Below, piece by piece: positions 21,229-34,417 of a DNA stretch of 64,000 nt. Each line of letters begins with the position of its first letter. Positions within the stretch are counted from its first letter, which is position 1. The stretch is from Alistipes sp. (GTDB lineage: Bacteria > Bacteroidota > Bacteroidia > Bacteroidales > Rikenellaceae), in the NCBI GenBank assembly GCA_017410165.1, contig JAFQRH010000007.1, forward strand, positions 4,447 through 68,446, given 5' to 3'. The notes beneath the pieces are model-generated. The model made no database searches, was not told where the DNA came from, and saw nothing but the letters and a program-made list of their open reading frames with translations. Both the position numbers and the translations under genes were made by a program.

Positions 21229-22350
21229 CTATTGTGCCATTGCCGGCTGCTTGTGTTTTATACGCGAGGTGACCCTCTTCCAGTCGAGCAATCGCCACCA
21301 ATCGCGTACGAAATCGGCTCGACGATTACGATGGTCGATATAGTAGGCGTGTTCCCACACATCAAGCGTCAGTAACGGGTTCAGCCCCGAACGCAACGGA
21401 TTACCCGCATTCGATGTCGAGACAATCGACAGCCGACCATCCTTATCCTCGACGAGCCATACCCAACCCGAACCAAATAGTGAGGTTGCCGCCTTTGTGA
21501 ACTGCTCTTTGAAGGCATCTACCCCACCGAAATCGCGTTCGATGGCTCTACGCAACTCGGCAGGCATATCGGTTTGCGTCGGGGTGAGCGTATTGAAAAA
21601 GAGCGTATGGTTCCAAACCTGCGCAGCATTATTAAACAGCGCACCGTCGGCGTGAACGACAAGCGAGTCGAGCGTCATCCCTTCGCAGGGCGAGCCGACC
21701 GCCAAGCGATTCAGATTATCGACATACGTTTGCAGGTGTTTGCCGTAGTGGTAGTCGATGGTTTCGCGGCTCATCAGCGGAGCCAAAGCGTCTGCCGAGT
21801 ATGGCAGTGAAGGCATTGTGTAATTCATAATTTTATCGGTTTTGGTTACGTTCGGTTGAGCAACGACCACCTTTACAACATCCCCCGCCCGCAATCGGTT
21901 ATGTAGGTAGATATATCCGTTGAGATAGGTAGCGAAGAATAGCCACAGCAGGTATGGCACCATAAGCCACGCGGCCAACAGACGACGCGAGGCGGCATAT
22001 ATTATATAGGTAAAGACCAACACATCGAGCAGAAGAATCGTTATGAGTCCCGCAAGAGGCGAACGCAATGCAAAGAATACTACGCTCCACAGAAAATTGA
22101 CCAGCAGTTGTAGCAACCACAGGCGCACGACACTCATATCCCCTCGCGAAACAAGCACTCCGATACTCACGCCCATAAGCAGATAGAGCACGCTCCACGC
22201 AATCGGGAAGACGATATTCGGAGGCGTTAGCGGCGAACGCACCAATGTCGGATACCACTCTTCGAGTGCCGAGGTTTGGAGCATCGAGCCAATGACACCA
22301 ACTCCGAAGCACAGCAGTATAGGCACAACGTATGACAACACCTTTCTCAT
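21229..22350 (-). CDS. TspO/MBR tryptophan-rich sensory domain fused in frame to an Fe/Mn superoxide dismutase
   Basis: WYPTL..SPLTPPN.VF..AW..LY.LMG and LWL.FATYLN (TspO), then YHYGKH, NAAQVWNH, FGSGW, DVWEHAYY (SOD); no stop between them; ATG at 22350. Confidence 0.9.
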   Translation of the reverse strand: MRKVLSYVVPILLCFGVGVIGSMLQTSALEEWYPTLVRSPLTPPNIVFPIAWSVLYLLMGVSIGVLVSRGDMSVVRLWLLQLLVNFLWSVVFFALRSPLAGLITILLLDVLVFTYIIYAASRRLLAAWLMVPYLLWLFFATYLNGYIYLHNRLRAGDVVKVVVAQPNVTKTDKIMNYTMPSLPYSADALAPLMSRETIDYHYGKHLQTYVDNLNRLAVGSPCEGMTLDSLVVHADGALFNNAAQVWNHTLFFNTLTPTQTDMPAELRRAIERDFGGVDAFKEQFTKAATSLFGSGWVWLVEDKDGRLSIVSTSNAGNPLRSGLNPLLTLDVWEHAYYIDHRNRRADFVRDWWRLLDWKRVTSRIKHKQPAMAQ

Positions 22351-22418
22351 AAAAGCAACAAAATTTAGTTCGTACGACGATACGCTACAAATCCAATGCC
22401 CCAATCGACAAAAAGATA

Positions 22419-22452
22419 GGTGGGTATCCGAGAAACATCTCGAATACCCACC
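22419..22452 (-). terminator. Terminator-like hairpin after MFS transporter 1
   Basis: GGTGGGTAT..CGAGA/TCTCG.ATACCCACC. Confidence 0.6.
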
Positions 22453-22480
22453 CATATTATACCCTACGCGGGGCTATACG

Positions 22481-27451: not shown

Positions 27452-28846
27452 TTACTCTTCGCTTGCACCACCTTGACGCTCCTCGCGCGGTGCGTTATTA
27501 TGGCGATTTCTGCCGCCACGATGTGCTCCACCGCGAGAACGGTTGTTACGATTGTGCGAGTGGTTTGCGCGACGTTCACCCTCCGCCTTCGGTGCAGCCG
27601 TCGGCTGTGCATCGTCTGTCGGCTCCGAAGAGGCGTTTTGTGCCGGTTTATGCTCCTGCTTGTCGTGCGCGTCGGTGTGCTCTCTGCGCTCGGCGCGTTG
27701 CTCCTGACGATTGTCGCCACGCGAATTGCGATTGTTGCGCTTCTTGCGCTTCTTTGCCTTATCGAAACGAGTGATGCTATCCTCCTCGGTGCGGAATGTC
27801 GGCTCCTCGGTCTTGGCAGGTGCCGTATCGCCCAAGATGCTCTCGACCTTCTTGCCGTCGCGGTTAAGTGCCAAAATCTCCTTCACGCGCCAAATCGGAA
27901 TCGTCACCACGTTGGCCATTGCCTCCTTGCTCGTGCTGAACGACATCGTGCGGGCGAGGATATCGGTCTTGACCGGATAGTACTCGCCATCCATCGCCTG
28001 CAACGGCTCGCGCAGACGCGGAATCGAGCGACGTGCATCGGCATAGACATCGTATTCGTACATCAGGCAGCACTTCAACTTTGAGCACTGACCCGCCAAC
28101 TTCTGCGGATTGAGCGACAAATCCTGCACGCGCGCTGCGGAGGTTGTGACGCTCGAAAAGCTCGAAATCCACGACGCACAGCACAACTCACGACCACAAG
28201 CACCGATACCGCCGATGCGGCCCGCCTCCTGACGTGCGCCAATCTGCTTCATCTCGATACGGATATGGAACTGCTCGGCAAAGACCTTGATAAGTTCGCG
28301 GAAATCGACACGGCCGTCGGCAATGTAGTAGAATATCGCCTTAATCTTGTCGCCCTGATACTCCACGTCGCCAATCTTCATATCGAGCCCCATATCGGCA
28401 GCAATCTGGCGCGAGCGAATCATCGTCTCGTGCTCCAAGGCAATCGCCTCCTGCCAACGCTCGATATCGTACGGCTTTGCCTTGCGGTAAATCTTCTTGA
28501 ACTCGCCATTGTAGGGGTTGAAACCTATGCGGCGCATCTGCTTTGCGACCATATCGCCCGTCAGCGAGATGATGCCCACATCGTGGCCCGGCGACGCCTC
28601 GACAGCCACAATATCGCCCACTTCGAGTGGCAGATTATTGACATTCTGGTAGAACGAGCGACGCGTATTCTTGAAACGCACCTCAAATATGTCGGTCGGC
28701 ACATTATTCGGATATTCGCGCTGCCAAGGGGTTTCGTGCAGTTTGAAACAGCCATCGGCATAGACGGCAAACGGCTCGCCGAACTCGTTTTCGCCAAAGC
28801 AACATCCGCGACCAATTTCGGGTTTGGTGTATTTAGTGTAGTCCAT
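27452..28846 (-). CDS. PSP1/RicT (YaaT) domain protein with low-complexity C-terminal tail
   Basis: EVRFKNTRR, VEYQGD..KAIFYY.ADGRVDFRELI, RIEMKQIGARQE...GGIG.CGRELCC, KLAGQCSKLKCCL; start likely 28846. Confidence 0.93.
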   Translation of the reverse strand: MDYTKYTKPEIGRGCCFGENEFGEPFAVYADGCFKLHETPWQREYPNNVPTDIFEVRFKNTRRSFYQNVNNLPLEVGDIVAVEASPGHDVGIISLTGDMVAKQMRRIGFNPYNGEFKKIYRKAKPYDIERWQEAIALEHETMIRSRQIAADMGLDMKIGDVEYQGDKIKAIFYYIADGRVDFRELIKVFAEQFHIRIEMKQIGARQEAGRIGGIGACGRELCCASWISSFSSVTTSAARVQDLSLNPQKLAGQCSKLKCCLMYEYDVYADARRSIPRLREPLQAMDGEYYPVKTDILARTMSFSTSKEAMANVVTIPIWRVKEILALNRDGKKVESILGDTAPAKTEEPTFRTEEDSITRFDKAKKRKKRNNRNSRGDNRQEQRAERREHTDAHDKQEHKPAQNASSEPTDDAQPTAAPKAEGERRANHSHNRNNRSRGGAHRGGRNRHNNAPREERQGGASEE

Positions 28847-29095
28847 AATTTCCCAAAAGTTTGTATATTTCGGGTAAAGGTAGGAAAAATTTTTCAATTA
28901 CCGCATGTTTTGCGTAGCAAAAACTGTTTCTTACCACAATTAGCCACGACACAGACGAAACAAGGGTGGGGCATTCGATTATCATCTACTAACTCCACCC
29001 TATCAAGAAAAAAACTCTTCATTTTACCTTCATCAGCAGAAGGTCAGATAATGGTCTGTTCAACAAGGAAATCCATCCGACTTAAATTCAAGGTA

Positions 29096-29210
29096 AAGGC
29101 AAACAACCCGAAAGCCGTTATTGTTGTTACGGTTAGATGGCGAGTTGTTGTTACGGTTAGAAACACGGCAGTTGCGAGCATTATTGTACCAACTGCCCCC
29201 ACGAAGCACC
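29096..29210 (-). repeat. DGR template repeat (TR)
   Basis: 115-nt near copy of 30802-30916; minus strand reads as [38 protein letters not shown] with 12 AAY codons; 12 of 14 differences from VR are at TR adenines. Confidence 0.97.
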
Positions 29211-30217
29211 TACCTAATGACCATTAACTGTAATTTTTCACACACCGAACGTCGTAAGCACTTGGTGTACGCTCTGCGCACAAATGCCAGCAACGGAATT
29301 ATATGCTCTACATATTGTTCATCGTCCCACACTCCGTTTGCAAGTAGGTGTGTATATTTGTATATCTTTCTTTTGAACCTTATTTTGCTTCTTCTGTTAA
29401 GTACGATTTTGTCGCACGATATTCTGTACCCCAAAAATGCCACACCTCTTGTTGCAGTCTCCAATTGCGGACATTTTAAGGTAAGCGACAGTTGTTTAGA
29501 GACAAAATCGGATACTCGATTAACATATTCTTTCAAATCCTCCTTACTATGTCCGAATAACAACATATCATCCATATACCGTACATACACCGGCACACGT
29601 AATGCCTCCTTTATATAGTGATCGAGGAATGAAAGATAGAAATTTGCAAAGTACTGACTCGTAAGATTGCCAATCGGAATACCTCGCTGCGGCGTAACAG
29701 CGTAAGAATCAATAATCTTATCAAACAGATTCAACAGTTGACAATCTTTAAAAACTCGCCGCAACTGCTGTTTCAACACAACGTGCGATACCGAGTCAAA
29801 ATATTTTCTCACATCTAATTTGGCAACATAACGACACTGGCTCATACCCTGTCGAGCACGATCAATCGCAGCATACACACCTTTTCCTTCGCGTGATGCA
29901 TACGTATCGGAAATAAAGTGTTGTTCGAAGCGCGATTTACAGACATTGATTATGGCATGATGCAATACCCGCTCCTCAAACGATGCGGCACATATCACAC
30001 GCTGTTTCGGATCGTATATGTTAAAATAGTGATACCGACCGATTTTGAAAGTACCATTGAGTACTCCATCCCGTAACTCCAAAATATTATTGTAGAGATT
30101 CTTCGTAAATTGTATTACCGGCTCTTTGTGTTGTTTACCTCGTCGCGCATCATAATAGGCCGCCAAAAGATTTTCCAATGCGAGAATCCGAGGCATTAGA
30201 TTAGCAACACGTTTCAT
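29210..30217 (-). CDS. DGR reverse transcriptase
   Basis: 335 aa; YDPK.R.I.AASF.ERV.HHA, GKG, KLDVRKYFDSV, GIPIGNLTSQYFAN, YVRYMDD; no maturase/endonuclease extension; adjoins TR. Confidence 0.96.
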   Translation of the reverse strand: MKRVANLMPRILALENLLAAYYDARRGKQHKEPVIQFTKNLYNNILELRDGVLNGTFKIGRYHYFNIYDPKQRVICAASFEERVLHHAIINVCKSRFEQHFISDTYASREGKGVYAAIDRARQGMSQCRYVAKLDVRKYFDSVSHVVLKQQLRRVFKDCQLLNLFDKIIDSYAVTPQRGIPIGNLTSQYFANFYLSFLDHYIKEALRVPVYVRYMDDMLLFGHSKEDLKEYVNRVSDFVSKQLSLTLKCPQLETATRGVAFLGYRISCDKIVLNRRSKIRFKRKIYKYTHLLANGVWDDEQYVEHIIPLLAFVRRAYTKCLRRSVCEKLQLMVIR

Positions 30218-30666
30218 TGCGACTCCTCAGCAAACAATTCACACAATATGCGACCATACTTTTCAACTCGTTTATCTCCGATTCCGGAAATTTGCGTCAT
30301 AGCCGACGACTCGACTATCGGCAATTGTGCTATTTGAGCAAGTTCCGCATCGGTAAATACGGCATACGCAGGTACAGCATCATCCGCAGCAAGTCGCTTT
30401 CTAATAGCTCTCAATTTGGTAAACTTCTCGAAATCCTCCCGATTGAGCGACTCTTTATAATCGATTTTCTCTTTTCTATCCTGCGGAGAGCCAGAATATG
30501 CCGACGGCAAATATGTCACCAATACCGACCAATGCCCAATATTATCCGACGAGACATAAAACTGTCTGTCAATATCCAACACCTTGTGTCCTCGCAGAAA
30601 CTTGTTCATTATATCCTGTTCCTCTTCGCATCCACGCGACGATATATCAAAAATCTTTACCTGCAT
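30214..30666 (-). CDS. HRDC-domain DGR accessory protein
   Basis: LRAIRKRLAADDAVPAYAVFTDAELAQIA...ISGIGDKRVEKYG; its TGA overlaps the RT ATG (ATGA at 30217-30214). Confidence 0.9.
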   Translation of the reverse strand: MQVKIFDISSRGCEEEQDIMNKFLRGHKVLDIDRQFYVSSDNIGHWSVLVTYLPSAYSGSPQDRKEKIDYKESLNREDFEKFTKLRAIRKRLAADDAVPAYAVFTDAELAQIAQLPIVESSAMTQISGIGDKRVEKYGRILCELFAEESQ

Positions 30667-30703
30667 ATATTTTCTTTGAAATTCACAATAGTATTTGAGC
30701 GAA

Positions 30704-30764
30704 ATCTCGGTTGTCTATTCTCGCAGGACTTTTTCTTTGTCCTGCTCGTCTATCCAACCGAGAT
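30704..30764 (-). other. Two-tier hairpin downstream of the DGR target gene
   Basis: Outer stem ATCTCGGTTG (30704-30713)/CAACCGAGAT (30755-30764); inner stem GCAGGAC (30723-30729)/GTCCTGC (30739-30745). Confidence 0.75.
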
Positions 30765-30795
30765 ATTTTTAAGTCGGATAAATTTCCATTGAACT

Positions 30796-32193
30796 CTAAG
30801 GAAGGCAAACAACCCGAAAGCCGCCAGTGTCGTACCGGTAAGATGGCGACGTGTCGTTACGGTCAGAAACACGGCAGTTGCGAGCACTAGCGTACCAACT
30901 GCCCCCACGAAGCACCCTGTATTGGCCCGAGCTGGGGCCCGTAGGGTTGTTCTGTGACGATGACGAGTAATCGCCATACCAATCGCTACACCACTCCCAT
31001 ACATTGCCGCTCATATCATATAATCCGAGAGCATTAGCACGCTTCTGCTTGACCGGATGAGTTGCATTGCCACTGTTGCCATCGTACCAACCAACAGCAT
31101 CCATGACACCGCCTCCGCTATATTTTGTTCCAACTTTTCTGTTACCTCCGCGTGCGGCATACTCCCACTCCGCTTCGGTCGGAAGACGGTATCGCCGGCC
31201 TGTCATCGCACTCAACTCCTGACAAAATTGATTGGCCTCTTCCCAATTGACATAATACATCGGATATGTGTCCCCAACTCCATACATTGACCAACTCGAA
31301 TTTGCCTTATCTCGTTGCTGATAAATAGTTGCACCCATTATCTTTTGCCACTGCGCCTGCGTAACCTCACATTCAGCCATATAGAAAGAGCCAACTATAA
31401 CAGAGTGCACCGGTGACTCGTCGCTATCGGCTTCGCTGCCCTGCTCTGTGGTCGCGCCCATTTGGAATGTGCCGCCCTCGACATAGATCATCTTCATCCC
31501 CAACCCACAGTTTGCCTGTTCGGTATAATCCTGCGGTGTGCGAGAGTAGGAGGATTGTCCATAATTAGAAGAACCATAGTTCAATTGCGAGCCATAGGAC
31601 GACGAATTGGAAGAGCCATAATTCGGTTGCTGATACGATGGTTGGTCCGTAGTCGTAACATATAGTCGTTCGCCCAGCAGTGCGCTCAAAAGTTCGGAAC
31701 AGGCAGCAGGTATTGCATTTGGATTGCTCAACATATCCACGTCTGCCATCTTTTCACACTTATAGGTGGTCGTACTGAACAATTCGGACGACAAGTTCAC
31801 AACAAATTCGTCGTAAGAGTTAGAGTGCATCTTAACCTTGACAACCGAAAAAATCACATAATCAACCTCCGCTCCTTTTGACACAGACATCTCCCTTATC
31901 TTTTTGGCAATATCAAAAGGCGTTGGTCGCGTTATTCCCTGTTGCGCCAATGCAGCTTTCACCTCCGATATGGAATATGAGTAGTACTCATAGTGTTTAG
32001 AGTTGGTGAATGCCTCTTCTATATTTGCACGAATTGTTGTTTTGGTCGAAGTTGCAAGTTTTACATCGTTATTTCGGTCAAATATCTCCCAAACCGCAAC
32101 TCTCTGTTTGGCAAAGAAAGATTGCGCTGTGACGATGCTCGGAGCAAGCATCGCCACGCACAAAAGCAATATGATAGATAATTTTCTATACAT
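30796..32193 (-). CDS. DGR target protein: signal peptide, N-terminal alpha/beta domain, S/Y/G/N-rich linker, FGE-sulfatase (CLec) domain with C-terminal VR
   Basis: VEGGTFQMG, E.P.HSV, EVTQAQW, PMYYVNWEEA, RLPTEAEWEYAARGG, GLYDMSGNVWEWC.DW, RVLRGGSW...GFRVV. Confidence 0.95.
   Translation of the reverse strand: MYRKLSIILLLCVAMLAPSIVTAQSFFAKQRVAVWEIFDRNNDVKLATSTKTTIRANIEEAFTNSKHYEYYSYSISEVKAALAQQGITRPTPFDIAKKIREMSVSKGAEVDYVIFSVVKVKMHSNSYDEFVVNLSSELFSTTTYKCEKMADVDMLSNPNAIPAACSELLSALLGERLYVTTTDQPSYQQPNYGSSNSSSYGSQLNYGSSNYGQSSYSRTPQDYTEQANCGLGMKMIYVEGGTFQMGATTEQGSEADSDESPVHSVIVGSFYMAECEVTQAQWQKIMGATIYQQRDKANSSWSMYGVGDTYPMYYVNWEEANQFCQELSAMTGRRYRLPTEAEWEYAARGGNRKVGTKYSGGGVMDAVGWYDGNSGNATHPVKQKRANALGLYDMSGNVWEWCSDWYGDYSSSSQNNPTGPSSGQYRVLRGGSWYASARNCRVSDRNDTSPSYRYDTGGFRVVCLP
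30802..30916 (-). repeat. DGR variable repeat (VR)
   Basis: Encodes [38 protein letters not shown]; aligns to TR without gaps at offset 1706. Confidence 0.97.
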
Positions 32194-32223
32194 TGTTACT
32201 CGAAATATCTAATACGGTTACTC

Positions 32224-32700
32224 TTAGATTGCGCCAACCAACTCGTATGTCAGTTTTGTACAAGCGATACGAAGACTATCCAAATCTGTATATACGTCAA
32301 TGGTCTTCATCGCAACAACAAGGCCCGTCGAGGAGTTATAGATATAAGCGATTAACTGCGCAGTGTTTTTGCTCGTAATGTTGATTGCAGTTTTCAGCAC
32401 ATAATCCATTTGCTGCTTCTTAACATAAGAGAATGTCGCCTCGGAAATATTGCCATTTCTGTCGAAATTCGCTTCGAGCGACAGGAAACTAATCGAAACA
32501 TAGGCCTCATAATCCTCCGAGTTGGTTACCGCTTCGCTCATTCTGTTGCGAATGTAAGCTTTTGTGCTCTCTGCAACCTTACCACTTGGATCAACTACCT
32601 CCGTGACAGCCACCTTCTTACGCTTGTAGAATTGAGCCGATACGGTCGATGTCGAAATCATTGCAAAAAGTGCAATCAAAAGAAAAATACGTGTCTTCAT
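32224..32700 (-). CDS. Secreted hypothetical protein, paralogous to the N-terminal domain of the DGR target
   Basis: Signal peptide (VSA-Q); KKVAVTEVVD / STKAYIRNRMSEAVTNSEDYEAY / DYVL / ACTKL..ELVG align to the target N-domain. Confidence 0.8.
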   Translation of the reverse strand: MKTRIFLLIALFAMISTSTVSAQFYKRKKVAVTEVVDPSGKVAESTKAYIRNRMSEAVTNSEDYEAYVSISFLSLEANFDRNGNISEATFSYVKKQQMDYVLKTAINITSKNTAQLIAYIYNSSTGLVVAMKTIDVYTDLDSLRIACTKLTYELVGAI

Positions 32701-32963
32701 AGTAATTTGAGTTTTTAGTTAAACATAATTTGTATCGTTGCCAACAGATGACAACCGTTTAACTAAAAAATAGAAACGTGGGTATGTTTACTGATAAGAA
32801 GGTACGACCAAGCACCTATACGAACATAAACACAACCCACGCCAAACAGCGCAGGCATTTTGTGTCTATTGTGTGTTCGTAGTAATAATTTGGTCGTTTT
32901 ACTTATCAACAACAATAGCCCTAAATGCCATCAAAACAAATTGCGTATTCCGCAATTCAGTCA

Positions 32964-32995
32964 CAAATATAGCGACTTATTTTGAAAAGCACAAA
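32964..32995 (-). promoter_or_regulatory. Bacteroidetes sigma-A promoter for the DGR operon
   Basis: Minus strand TTTG (32995-32992), 20-nt spacer, TATATTTG (32971-32964). Confidence 0.7.
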
Positions 32996-33058
32996 AAAAA
33001 GAGCAACAGAAATATTGCTCGCAGGAGTTGTGGTTGAGAAAAATCGGGGAGGGGAGAT

Positions 33059-34417
33059 TTACAGCGATTTTTGCAGACGGCGCAGATGACCGCCGACACG
33101 TACCGAGTAGCAGATGGCTGCGGTTGTGAGTCCGACAATATAGCCAATCATCAGACCCTCGGCACCCATACCGAGAGTGAAGGCAAAAAGATAGCCGACC
33201 GGAATATTCAACAGCACGTAGGCGACGAACGACAGCGTAGCGATAATGCGCACGTCCTGCATACCGCGCAGCACGCCGACCATCGTCCCCTGTATGGCAT
33301 CCGAGACCTGATAGAGTGCAACAAGCACTATAAGACGCGAGCCGAGCGCGATAACCTGCTCGTTGGTGGTAAACGCCATCGGCATCACACCACTAAACGC
33401 AATAAACGACACGAGCACCAGCGCACCCCACAGCGCACCAATATGCACCGACGAGAGCACCACATCGCGCAGCGTGCGTGCATCGCGGACACCGAAGGCG
33501 TGCGACGTGCGGATGGTTGTCGCGCTACCGATAGCGACGGTCATCATAAATGCCGCGTTGCCGTACGTTCCGCCAATCTGGTTGGCTGCGATTGCCTCCG
33601 CACCAAACCAACCCATCATAATACTCGTCACGACGAAGGCGATACCCTCCAAGAACATCTGACCGGCAACCGGCACACCGATTCCAAGCAGGCGAACGAT
33701 ATACGAGAGGTAGTTGATGCCGCGCGAGAAGAGTTGCAGATAGTCGCGGTACTCGCGCTTGAAATAGAAGTAGCCGAGCGCCACAACGGGCGACAAGTAG
33801 CGCGCCACAAGCGTAGCCAAACCTGCACCATAGACGCCCATTGGCTCCGAGCCGCAATGTCCGAAAATAAACACCCAATTAAGGAGAATATTCACAAGGT
33901 TGGTCGCCAGAGCGATGAGCATCGGGGCGACCGTATTGCCGACACCTTCGAGAAACTGTTTGAAACAGCCGTAGAGCATAACCGCCGGCAGGGAGTAGGC
34001 CATCAGGCGATAGTAAGGCATTGCCATATCGACCACCTCAACGGGCTGCCCAAGCCGATAGAGCAACGGTTCCATCCATATTTGCAGCATCATAAAGCAG
34101 ACGCCCAGCACCGCGCACATAACAAGCGACGATTGCAGATAGTGTGCCGTGCGACGATACTCGCCACGCGCGAAGTGTTCGCCGATAAGCGGTGTAATGC
34201 CGAGCGTAACGCCAAGCGTCAAACTGAACATCACGAAGCTCATCATCACGCCAAACGACACGGCCGACAGCGGCAACGGGTCATCCGCACCATAAGCCCC
34301 GACCATAGCGTTGTCGGCAAACTGCACGACGATATAGCCGAGTTGCGACAAGGCAACCGGCATAGCCAGACGCAGATTGGCTTTATAGTGTGACGCGTAA
34401 CGATTAAACCACTTCAT
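33059..34417 (-). CDS. MATE family efflux transporter (NorM-like)
   Basis: LAMPVALSQL...QFADNAMVG, about 12 TM segments, YQVSDAIQG. Confidence 0.93.
   Translation of the reverse strand: MKWFNRYASHYKANLRLAMPVALSQLGYIVVQFADNAMVGAYGADDPLPLSAVSFGVMMSFVMFSLTLGVTLGITPLIGEHFARGEYRRTAHYLQSSLVMCAVLGVCFMMLQIWMEPLLYRLGQPVEVVDMAMPYYRLMAYSLPAVMLYGCFKQFLEGVGNTVAPMLIALATNLVNILLNWVFIFGHCGSEPMGVYGAGLATLVARYLSPVVALGYFYFKREYRDYLQLFSRGINYLSYIVRLLGIGVPVAGQMFLEGIAFVVTSIMMGWFGAEAIAANQIGGTYGNAAFMMTVAIGSATTIRTSHAFGVRDARTLRDVVLSSVHIGALWGALVLVSFIAFSGVMPMAFTTNEQVIALGSRLIVLVALYQVSDAIQGTMVGVLRGMQDVRIIATLSFVAYVLLNIPVGYLFAFTLGMGAEGLMIGYIVGLTTAAICYSVRVGGHLRRLQKSL

Follow-up and report, generated by a model that had tools for sequence, protein, structure and literature searches.

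The prototype of diversity-generating retroelements (DGRs), found in Bordetella phage BPP-1, has the organization mtd-avd-TR-brt and displays a short GC-rich cruciform 4 bp after VR (PMC3240598). In this element, RNA located 3' of TR primes cDNA synthesis and remains linked to the cDNA (10.1101/2023.10.23.563531; PMC12875486), and the route of cDNA integration is still described as unknown, with the sense strand as the favoured annealing partner (PMC12875486). Cellular DGRs encoding an HRDC accessory gene have previously been catalogued as "Architecture C" in a survey in which just 14 DGRs contained HRDC; these displayed 11 different layouts, and roughly half encoded avd as well (Wu et al. 2018, PMC5758913). 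More recently, DGRs diversifying Type V pilus-associated proteins were described in Bacteroides of the human gut, in a preprint that does not mention HRDC, hairpins or IMH (Macadangdang et al., 10.1101/2024.11.15.621889).

The window analysed here, a 64-kb stretch (64,000 nucleotides) of the Alistipes sp. contig JAFQRH010000007.1, carries a complete chromosomal, non-phage HRDC-type DGR that diversifies an exported protein with a CLec/FGE fold. The element shares with BPP-1 a homologous RT with the GIPIG(N/S)LTSQ motif, adenine-specific transfer from TR to VR affecting AAY codons in a C-type-lectin fold, and structured RNA 3' of TR, whereas it lacks Avd and has TR after rather than before the RT gene. 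With Architecture C and the TvpA element of Treponema denticola, it has in common the DGR RT, the HRDC accessory gene, the cellular context and an FGE-type C-type-lectin target with VR at the C-terminus. Like the Bacteroides DGRs, it is a chromosomal or mobile-element DGR of gut Bacteroidales with an exported surface or adhesive target; unlike them, it resides in a Rikenellaceae host of herbivore guts, and diversifies an FGE-domain protein whose N-terminal domain is unrelated. What sets the locus and its clade apart is a short non-coding tag, here called F, following VR and antisense to a segment, F', following TR.

Organization and genomic setting

All parts of the DGR are encoded on the minus strand in the order target(VR)-HRDC-RT-TR, at the positions given in an initial annotation made from the sequence alone. 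The features of the island are as follows (coordinates of the window):

28851..33000, minus strand: DGR island of 4.15 kb, strain-variable and low in GC, bounded by the start codon of PSP1 and the terminator of MatE
28851..29057, minus strand: non-coding but conserved region 3' of F', presumably corresponding to the spacer RNA of the Bordetella phage
29058..29086, minus strand: F', directly 3' of TR and antisense to F, with a conserved GGATGGAT core running into a conserved TGAACAG motif
29096..29210, minus strand: TR, 115 nt, starting on the final base of the RT stop codon
29210..30217, minus strand: DGR reverse transcriptase, 335 aa, with GIPIGNLTSQ and YMDD (Pfam RVT_1, 4e-18)
30214..30666, minus strand: HRDC accessory gene in place of avd, 150 aa, with an N-terminal beta-alpha-beta-beta domain and a RecQ-type HRDC domain (Pfam HRDC, 8e-14)
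30704..30764, minus strand: inverted repeat forming a long imperfect hairpin directly after F (-31.7 kcal/mol, z = -9)
30768..30794, minus strand: F, non-coding tag directly 3' of VR, reverse complement of F'
30796..32193, minus strand: target gene, 465-aa exported protein with a signal peptide and a C-terminal FGE-sulfatase/C-type-lectin domain (Pfam PF03781, 8e-53)
30802..30916, minus strand: VR, 115 nt, codons 426-464 of 465, with the stop codon 4 nt past the VR end
32224..32700, minus strand: first gene of the island, exported 158-aa protein, paralog of the target N-terminal domain
32971-32964, minus strand: Bacteroidetes-type -7 box, TATATTTG, a consensus match only and the sole such box in the island, ~265 nt upstream of the first gene

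The single -7 box agrees with the one promoter proposed earlier. The 158-aa protein matched no Pfam or NCBIfam family, yet shows 29% identity to target residues 1-231 (BLASTP, E = 4e-16), and its gene is syntenic in every contig with the exact RT. The extent of the element was originally set at 29058-33000; comparison of strains upholds the end at 33000 but moves the start to 28851, and the corrected extent includes a conserved non-coding stretch of ~245 nt 3' of TR as well as the upstream 158-aa gene. The element can be delimited as a 4.15-kb island because related strains display an empty PSP1-MatE site, a comparison that the initial annotation had proposed: in metagenome run X31, a single contig fuses 28850 to 33001 with ~214 nt of other sequence in between, and in run X29, a single contig fuses 28850 to 32631 with ~600 nt in between. 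No target-site duplication was found at the island ends. As noted before, GC content is visibly lower across the region (0.39-0.47 over 28750-33000) than in the flanks (0.52-0.60), and phage, integrase and conjugation genes are missing from the surroundings, as the neighbours within ~10 kb on each side are housekeeping genes only (a TrmB-like methyltransferase, PSP1, MatE, an amino-acid permease, FabI-like, LigA, DapA, SOD, MFS and others), with no transposase or integrase at the island or in these flanks. The clade was not found on viral contigs, the top viral RT identity being 40%.

The host is an uncultured Alistipes-like (Rikenellaceae) bacterium of the herbivore gut. The LigA relatives that bear a name (73-78% identity) are without exception Alistipes sp. 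or Rikenellaceae MAGs. Goat and bovine gut metagenomes are among the runs holding the element; in the sheep-gut run X28, the flanking MatE gene is present and the RT absent.

Reverse transcriptase, HRDC protein and clade

Among solved structures, the Bordetella phage DGR RT (8ub7) is closest to the RT of the window, with 148 bits (3e-42); a group II intron RT, the next-best match among solved non-DGR RTs, reaches 55.6 bits and a "retron-type" RT 50.7 bits. An assignment of the RT to group II introns, retrons or defence systems, with TR and VR as an ordinary duplication, could draw on weak hits to the NCBIfam models for group II, retron and Drt proteins, yet these are far below the curated cut-offs, the Bordetella phage match is ~93 bits stronger, no Rfam family, including group II RNA, was matched, and both the mismatches and the population variation are adenine-specific. 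The RT comparison and the adenine-specific VR variation thus refute this assignment, which we give practically no chance, and the clustering with group II or retron RTs named beforehand as evidence against a DGR was not observed. The identity of the element as a DGR is close to certain.

The HRDC gene stop and the RT start overlap by 4 nt. The HRDC protein is retained in 43 aligned sequences (the window and 42 loci) and occurs in at least 513 protein clusters. Its AlphaFold2 model (pLDDT 84) matches 1wud in the HRDC part (TM 0.77) and is not a four-helix bundle. Within the clade, a TR/VR pair was found at ~60 of 80 loci from genomes and at 44 of 80 from metagenomes. In contrast to the layouts surveyed by Wu et al., more than 100 loci share one fixed layout, target-F-HRDC-RT-TR-F', without avd. 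TR after RT and the absence of avd were earlier remarked on as departures from BPP-1; both hold here but are unremarkable, as the gene order and missing avd are normal for this large, catalogued cellular HRDC-type clade, and the element itself is ordinary.

Target gene and variation in populations

The best solved relative of the target is the T. denticola variable protein TvpA (2y3c, 3e-36). As described in the initial annotation, VR lies at the 3' end of the target gene and forms with TR a 115-nt ungapped repeat (88% identical). Of 14 mismatches, 12 coincide with one of the 27 adenines among the 115 nt of TR (hypergeometric p = 2e-7), and the diversified adenines are all within in-frame AAY codons. 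The last 22 nt of TR are devoid of adenine and the same as in VR, and the IMH/IMH* difference seen in BPP-1 is thereby lacking. No second VR was found in the 64-kb window.

Four VR alleles, with 28 variable positions of which 26 are TR adenines (of 27), occur among contigs that do not differ in RT, TR, F and F', and TR is identical across all six contigs carrying the exact RT. In other metagenomes, 24 of 26 variable VR positions are TR adenines (p = 3e-19), and the enrichment anticipated for VR variation is therefore present in both comparisons. In the diverged strains X7 and X8, a non-adenine TR change, 29111 A>G, reappears at VR position 30817. The variation of VR between strains and the recurrence of this point change in VR demonstrate transfer from TR to VR, while misincorporation opposite adenines is deduced from the mismatch pattern. 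Population data consist of assembled contigs rather than reads, such that heterogeneity within samples is suggested solely by assemblies that break or drop in depth at VR (X1, X2 and X6). From these sequences, the DGR has very likely been active recently. Together, the RT match, VR variation, host and empty site support the earlier view of a chromosomal, non-phage DGR diversifying an exported protein of a gut Bacteroidales.

An antisense tag flanking VR and TR

F is located past the target stop codon and is complementary to 29067-29086 at 18 of 20 bases, or 20 of 20 when G.U is counted; the match reaches ~27 nt if one bulge is allowed. A match like that of the window is expected 0.01 times by chance. 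In ~100 loci of the clade, the ~30 nt that follow each VR and the ~30 nt that follow TR are reverse complements. Inverted alignments score 31 versus 12 for direct ones in genome loci, with 63 G.U against 5 A.C mismatches, and metagenome contigs replicate this pattern (34 versus 12.5; 50 G.U against 7 A.C), summing to 113 against 12. Duplexes of F and F' from one locus are more stable than those formed across loci (median -38 versus -26 kcal/mol, p = 3e-15). Changes on both sides were seen at all helix pairs (18/18), and the covariation score was 0.708, compared to 0.234 when shuffled (0 of 500 shuffles reaching 0.708) and 0.10-0.27 in slid register, in an alignment that was anchored on, and hence favours, the helix and whose related loci do not count as independent events. 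Because of the covariation and the G.U over A.C asymmetry, F:F' pairing in the sense orientation can be regarded with high confidence as being under selection.

No F:F' match was detected in 45 to 56 pairs of viral Avd-type DGRs, even over 160 nt after TR. The tag is not universal in the clade: two Alistipes MAG loci (L003 and L006; RT 59% identical to that of the window) have no detectable match and instead show local hairpins on each side. In multi-target loci, every extra VR has its own F; these extra targets are recent duplicates and may owe their F copies to inheritance, not to separate maintenance. Neither the Wu et al. survey (PMC5758913) nor the other literature searched mentions F:F' complementarity, which appears to be undescribed so far.

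A docking model and its alternatives

A single transcript probably holds the 158-aa paralog, target, HRDC protein, RT, TR and ~245 nt of conserved RNA. The RT would copy TR into cDNA with misincorporation opposite adenines, and the cDNA would replace VR, recoding 13 AAY codons on the ligand-binding face of the C-type-lectin domain. As TR and VR do not differ at their 3' ends, the flanks must tell donor from recipient. If cDNA is primed from RNA 3' of TR, as in the Bordetella phage, F' stays joined 5' of the cDNA, and the product, 5'-F'(RNA)...cDNA-3', would be collinear with and complementary to the target sense strand 5'-VR-F-3'. In the mechanism that we favour, F' would dock the cDNA beside VR, possibly aided by the HRDC protein, substituting for the IMH/IMH* difference and GC cruciform of the prototype. 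Such docking would resemble group II intron retrohoming (EBS-IBS) in that RNA attached to the RT product base-pairs with the target sense strand. This is a likeness of working, not membership: intron RNA, ribozyme, splicing and endonuclease domain are missing here, and the presumed pairing partner is a ~30-nt tag beyond the copied region. A role of F:F' in target recognition through RNA:DNA pairing is put forward tentatively, as somewhat short of probable, while the explanation as a whole, of which docking is the least certain part, is in our judgement quite probable. The tag offers a testable lead on the way in which the mutated copy locates its target, and if the model is true, target specificity may be programmable through the covarying sequences.

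The pairing may also occur between RNAs, either within one polycistronic transcript (1.7-kb loop) or between TR RNA and target mRNA, with the ~30-bp duplex serving RNA processing, e.g., as an RNase III site that defines the template RNA 3' end, or controlling expression of HRDC and RT, and with no part in DNA target recognition. F and F' could share one transcript and pair in cis because all ~110 VRs are co-oriented with TR; the single promoter-like box in the island, the overlapping or closely spaced genes and the tolerance of G.U, which suits RNA:RNA as well as RNA:DNA, are consistent with this, as is the nicked template RNA proposed as the primer of the prototype (PMC5703328). Yet F also occurs on VRs downstream of TR and up to 7 kb away (L030, L050, L060, L076, L190, L207, L223, L239 and L240), and always directly after VR, a position that a pure TR-side processing signal would not need, while a cis helix would be broken again and again as the two ORFs that it encloses are translated. 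Pairing between RNAs is accordingly considered rather unlikely.

It is more doubtful still that F is a passive footprint, left when a host polymerase copies the cDNA-attached F' RNA at each homing, with the pairing itself being functionless. Such copying would yield the collinear arrangement of 5'-F'-cDNA-3' and 5'-VR-F-3', and F and F' are indeed unchanged in strains ~1.5% diverged. However, the G.U bias points to selection for pairing rather than decay after copying, many loci are bulged around the GGAT core, such that F is no straight copy, and in Runella-type loci (L040 and L066), the central hairpin of F' has no counterpart in F, which pairs with the two F' arms only. A reading of F and F' as the terminal inverted repeats of a mobile HRDC-RT-TR cassette, which a recombinase would recognise at the DNA level, seems very improbable to us. 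While inverted repeats do bracket a 1.7-kb segment and the island is strain-variable, the latter ends at 28851 and 33000 and not at F/F', it holds no transposase or integrase, F is also present on extra VRs outside the cassette, and a protein-bound DNA repeat would not give the G.U over A.C asymmetry. Among the metagenome contigs examined, none had the F-to-F' segment excised, inverted or inserted at unrelated sites.

RNA structure around the tag

The region 3' of F' contains conserved motifs in a 37-sequence alignment (the window and 36 loci). In the minimum free energy fold, 29091-29116 at the TR 3' end pairs with 28970-29001, although this is not significant (z = -1.5). On the VR side, the short cruciform of BPP-1 is replaced by F and then the long hairpin, and a hairpin just past F is common in the clade (median z -2.85).

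An HRDC-type diversity-generating retroelement

The diversity-generating retroelement (DGR) is real, complete and active, and belongs to a catalogued HRDC type. The initial annotation had described a target gene carrying the variable repeat (VR), followed by genes for an HRDC-domain protein and a reverse transcriptase (RT) and by a 115-nt template repeat (TR), with a matching VR and low GC content. This description is borne out in full, with GC falling to about 0.39-0.47 across 28750-33000. No further VR is present elsewhere within the 64-kb window.

Parts of the element, in order of transcription
32700-32224, minus strand: gene for a 158-aa exported protein, the first of the DGR-island genes (ORF)
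32193-30796, minus strand: target gene, 465 aa, exported, with a C-terminal FGE-sulfatase/C-type-lectin domain (ORF and domain search)
30802-30916, minus strand: VR, 115 nt, direct repeat, covering target codons 426-464 of 465
30666-30214, minus strand: gene for an HRDC-domain protein, 150 aa (PF00570, 8e-14)
30217-29210, minus strand: RT gene, 335 aa, with GIPIGNLTSQ and YMDD motifs (ORF and motifs)
29096-29210, minus strand: TR, 115 nt, direct repeat, with the last base of the RT stop codon as its first base

The sequence features that define a DGR are present, namely an RT of the lineage with the (I/L)GxxxSQ motif, an adenine-biased TR/VR pair, and a VR at the 3' end of the target gene. The best PDB match of the RT is the Bordetella phage RT (8ub7 series; 148 bits, E = 3e-42), whereas the solved group II intron and 'retron-type' RTs score 55.6 and 50.7 bits, which upholds the assignment to DGRs rather than to group II introns or retrons. 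Among family models, the group II model TIGR04416 gives 100 bits against a cut-off of 300, the retron NCBIfam models at most 69 bits against cut-offs of at least 235, and the RT lies far under the cut-offs of the Drt RT models. As an Rfam search of 28000-34000 at E <= 1 gave no match, and hence neither an intron nor a retron RNA, neither protein nor RNA places the element in either group. The C-terminal domain of the target is closest to Treponema denticola TvpA (2y3c, 3e-36), a structurally characterised DGR variable protein. In every metagenome, contig depth climbs over 30952-31293 to 100-500x from about 15x, with many contigs diverging on either side, and the conserved core of this FGE/C-type-lectin domain is common to many other genes or elements of those communities. 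The 158-aa protein is a paralog of the N-terminal ~170 residues of the target (31500-32193; 29% identity, E = 4e-16), and neither has a Pfam or NCBIfam family match. Its gene is part of the island and syntenic wherever the exact RT is found.

The best 80 genome relatives of the RT are 46-67% identical to it and come from Bacteroidota, Chlorobiota, Cloacimonadota, Fibrobacterota and others. About 60 of them have an adenine-biased TR/VR pair, and nearly all these loci share one layout: VR, a gene of ~150 aa, RT, and a TR at most about 30 nt away from the RT stop. The TR after the RT and the lack of avd, previously put forward as departures from the BPP-1 prototype, are thus present but do not distinguish the element, as they are the norm of its clade; the layout is that of an ordinary new member of the HRDC type. 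HRDC-containing DGRs are already catalogued as 'Architecture C' (Wu et al. 2018, PMC5758913). BPP-1-type elements (Architecture B) differ in having an avd four-helix bundle gene adjoining the TR, an IMH that differs from IMH*, and a short, GC-rich inverted repeat that immediately follows the VR. In contrast, the element studied here lacks avd, its TR and VR share identical 22-nt 3' ends, and the hairpin lies 37 nt downstream, is long, and is not GC-rich.

The sole accessory ORF encodes the HRDC protein, and no avd gene or other Pfam-positive small ORF was found. In 43 aligned sequences (the window and 42 loci), the ~150-aa gene next to the RT encodes the same protein with an N-terminal domain and an HRDC domain, and at least 513 clusters of this protein exist in the protein database. 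Its AF2 model (pLDDT 84) predicts a RecQ-type HRDC bundle preceded by a small beta-alpha-beta-beta domain, and as modelled the protein is not an Avd four-helix bundle. Fold matches of the N-terminal domain to L23, Alba and dodecin are weak and non-significant (E > 0.1).

Adenine-directed variation and transfer between TR and VR

TR and VR differ at 14 of 115 nt, and 12 of these mismatches fall at adenines of the TR, which has 27 of them (p = 2e-7). Every diversified adenine lies within an in-frame AAY codon, of which the TR frame has 13. Both non-adenine differences adjoin a changed adenine. One of them, T81>G next to A82 (VR positions 81-82, window 30834-30835), is seen in two otherwise different VR alleles (that of the window and that of loci L241/L244) and could stem from partial homing or from an RT error that depends on sequence context.

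Eleven metagenomic contigs encode exactly this RT protein, and their gene order is unchanged. In the six that were examined in full, the TR and both flanking segments considered below are identical to those of the window. Five of the six reach the VR and, together with the window, provide four VR alleles. Of the 28 positions at which these alleles differ, 26 belong to the 27 TR adenines. Contigs of eight further gut-metagenome runs have 26 variable VR positions, 24 of them at TR adenines (p = 3e-19). The predicted enrichment of VR variation at TR adenines was thereby confirmed at the contig level. In three runs, assembly breaks or depth drops exactly at the VR, as expected from mixed alleles; within-sample heterogeneity is here inferred from contigs rather than counted.

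A non-adenine substitution in the TR at 29111 is repeated at the matching VR position 30817 in two metagenome runs (X7 and X8), whose strains are about 1.5% diverged. This mirrored change indicates recent movement of information between the repeats, and the adenine pattern suggests that it ran from TR to VR. The 3'-most 22 nt of TR and VR are identical and adenine-free; since the mirrored change, at TR position 100, lies inside this segment, the cDNA spans at least position 100 of 115, and a model in which copying skips all 22 nt was dropped.

Complementary flanks of TR and VR

Thousands of DGRs are known in gut Bacteroidales, and the element alone is one more active DGR. The useful part is a clade-wide antisense relation between the TR and VR flanks, that is, between F, a non-coding tag just 3' of the VR (30768-30794) and 3' of the target stop codon, and F', the segment just 3' of the TR (29058-29086). 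In the window, the 20 nt at 29086-29067, 9 nt after the TR, are complementary to the 20 nt at 30787-30768, 14 nt after the VR. The match covers 18 of 20 positions, or all 20 with G.U pairs, is expected 0.01 times by chance, and extends to about 27 nt with one bulge.

The relation recurs across the clade. For 61 genome TR/VR pairs, the flank duplex within a locus has a median of -38 kcal/mol against -26 across loci (p = 3e-15), and the VR flank, aligned locally, scores 31 with the reverse-complemented TR flank and 12 with the TR flank in direct orientation. Fifty pairs from metagenome contigs replicate the result (34 inverted, 12.5 direct). F and F' have different sequences at different loci, and the two change in step. 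When 41 distinct pairs were aligned in an anchored register of 18 bp, each of the 18 base pairs had changed on both sides; 85% of cells are paired, and shuffling lowers this to 59.5%. Covariation scores 0.708, a value reached in 0/500 shuffles, compared with 0.234 for shuffled pairs and 0.10-0.27 in slid registers. Each additional VR of a multi-target locus has its own F. In Runella-type loci, F pairs with only two arms of F', which flank a local hairpin. The exceptions are two Alistipes MAG loci (L003 and L006; RT 59% identical to that of the window), in which the match is absent and a local hairpin follows the VR (GCCAT-TTGCAG-ATGGC) and another the TR; targeting elements seem to have been exchanged within the clade. 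Viral Avd-type DGRs gave no match in 56 TR/VR pairs (12 vs 12), nor in the 45 distinct viral pairs whose flanks were long enough to be searched over 160 nt after the TR, where 6.7% exceed the cross-locus 95th percentile compared with 72.5% in the cellular clade.

DGR signals described in the literature comprise IMH/IMH*, stem-loops that bind Avd, and a 'stop' duplex in which the sequences bordering the TR on its two sides pair, along with a local GC-rich inverted repeat after the VR in 34% of DGRs (PMC5758913, PMC3240598, 10.1101/2023.10.23.563531, PMC12875486, 10.1101/2024.11.15.621889, PMC8867640). Complementarity of the TR and VR flanks is not mentioned in the portions of the DGR literature searched, a set that leaves out many subscription papers. 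The relation does not seem to have been described, and an earlier description somewhere is a real possibility, though not what we expect.

Further structures 3' of the flanks

The RNA 3' of F' (28900-29057; alignment A4) contains the motifs TGAACAG, GGGAC(A/G)AA(A/T)A, T(T/G)AGTAG and CGAA(A/G)G, conserved clade-wide, and several hairpins, and no Rfam family covers it. Pairing of this RNA with the TR 3' end, a possible primer duplex, is predicted in many loci and may occur, although it is not statistically supported (window MFE fold z = -1.5). RNAalifold on a MAFFT alignment of 145 nt over the TR 3' end and downstream sequence gave just 3 pairs, the alignment being too poor beyond F'.

A long hairpin after F (window 30704-30764) is found in most loci of the clade, with a median z of -2.85. 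The motif GGGACG is found in 52 of 99 distinct pairs (chance about 2%), roughly 70 nt downstream of the VR, and lay in the apical loop of the hairpin in the folds inspected. GGGACG is the complement of (C/T)GTCCC at the TR/VR 3' end and is present in 27/29 loci with that end versus 25/70 without it. The two may form a pseudoknot enclosing F. The hairpin of the window is without the motif.

A candidate docking step and its alternatives

To our knowledge, the way in which DGR cDNA reaches its target and is integrated there has been an open question since 2002. A 2026 study calls it 'incompletely understood' (PMC12875486). In the prototype, an adenosine of the spacer RNA 3' of the TR primes the cDNA, which stays linked to that RNA (10.1101/2023.10.23.563531; PMC12875486), and the latter study reports that annealing favours the sense strand when this strand serves as lagging-strand template.

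By analogy, F' may act as an antisense guide that remains on the 5' end of the mutagenised cDNA. Priming 3' of F' would give a product 5'-F'(RNA)...cDNA-3', collinear with and complementary to the sense strand 5'-VR-F-3'. Pairing of F' with the ~30-nt tag that closely follows each VR on the sense strand would then choose and align the recipient, in an EBS/IBS-like recognition step programmable by sequence. In the Bordetella phage DGR, the distinction between IMH and IMH* sets the direction of transfer. Since the TR and VR 3' ends of the window are identical, this direction signal is missing, which leaves the flanks as the only difference close by. Judged from sequence comparison, a role of F' as a docking or guide segment is possible but falls somewhat short of an even chance, and the fuller proposal, that throughout the HRDC-type clade the TR-adjacent RNA is a cDNA-attached antisense guide selecting its recipient through the tag, is put forward more tentatively still. 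If true, it would explain target finding without Avd, an IMH/IMH* difference, or a GC cruciform.

The character of the mismatches bears on several other explanations. In sense orientation, transition mismatches are of the G.U type in 113 cases and of the A.C type in 12, a bias that points to selection for pairing between sense-orientation strands and argues against a protein-bound DNA repeat. The same bias, together with the bulged and three-way-junction cases, makes it improbable that F is a footprint left by copying. F is also not an adenine-mutagenic copy of F', as mismatches opposite F' adenines are rare. That F and F' are terminal repeats of a cassette is contradicted by the island boundaries and is very improbable. 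An RNA:RNA helix, formed in cis or with the target mRNA, is compatible with selected pairing, and the co-orientation of every VR found with its TR speaks for it: none lies on the opposite strand within 6-10 kb in any locus (about 110 VRs, L001-L080 and L161-L240), and multi-target loci have VRs both upstream and downstream of the TR. We consider such a helix unlikely, though worth keeping in mind beside the docking of a cDNA-attached guide.

Covarying pairing between RNA and target makes target recognition by DGRs directly testable, by mutating one side and compensating on the other. If docking is confirmed, DGR mutagenesis could be redirected to chosen genes by a 30-nt tag placed after the sequence to diversify, and the HRDC accessory protein would have its first candidate role.

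Host, island and genomic context

Named relatives of LigA are all Alistipes or Rikenellaceae MAGs. Runs bearing the element include goat and bovine gut metagenomes, and in one sheep-gut run the flanking MatE gene is present and the RT absent. The genes within about 10 kb of the element are housekeeping genes, and the best RT relative among 2.9 million viral contigs is just 40% identical; the non-phage nature initially proposed for this locus holds for the whole clade.

An empty site between the PSP1 and MatE genes in relatives, a check suggested in the initial annotation, was recovered in a related strain (run X31), where 28850 and 33001 lie on one contig, separated by about 214 nt, a nearly empty site. 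In X29, about 600 nt of other sequence separate 28850 from 32631 on one contig, and 32631-33000 is kept. In X23, the 158-aa gene and the target N-terminus (31668-32680) are covered by a contig of lower depth, and the RT has no coverage. The site is thus polymorphic, with more than two states among strains, and the joined contigs define the DGR as a 4.15-kb strain-variable island (28851-33000), bordered by the MatE terminator on one side and the PSP1 start codon on the other. No integrase was found in the island, nor a target-site duplication or terminal repeats at its ends.

A sigma-70 promoter and terminator scan gave no more sites than shuffled sequence, the model being uninformative for Bacteroidetes, and GC skew, which tracks gene orientation, was uninformative as a guide to replication direction. 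Elsewhere in the window, at 21229-22455 on the minus strand, one 408-aa ORF has both a TspO/MBR membrane domain, at residues 46-184, and a complete Fe/Mn superoxide dismutase, at 211-398, and is either a gene fusion or two genes merged by the ORF caller.
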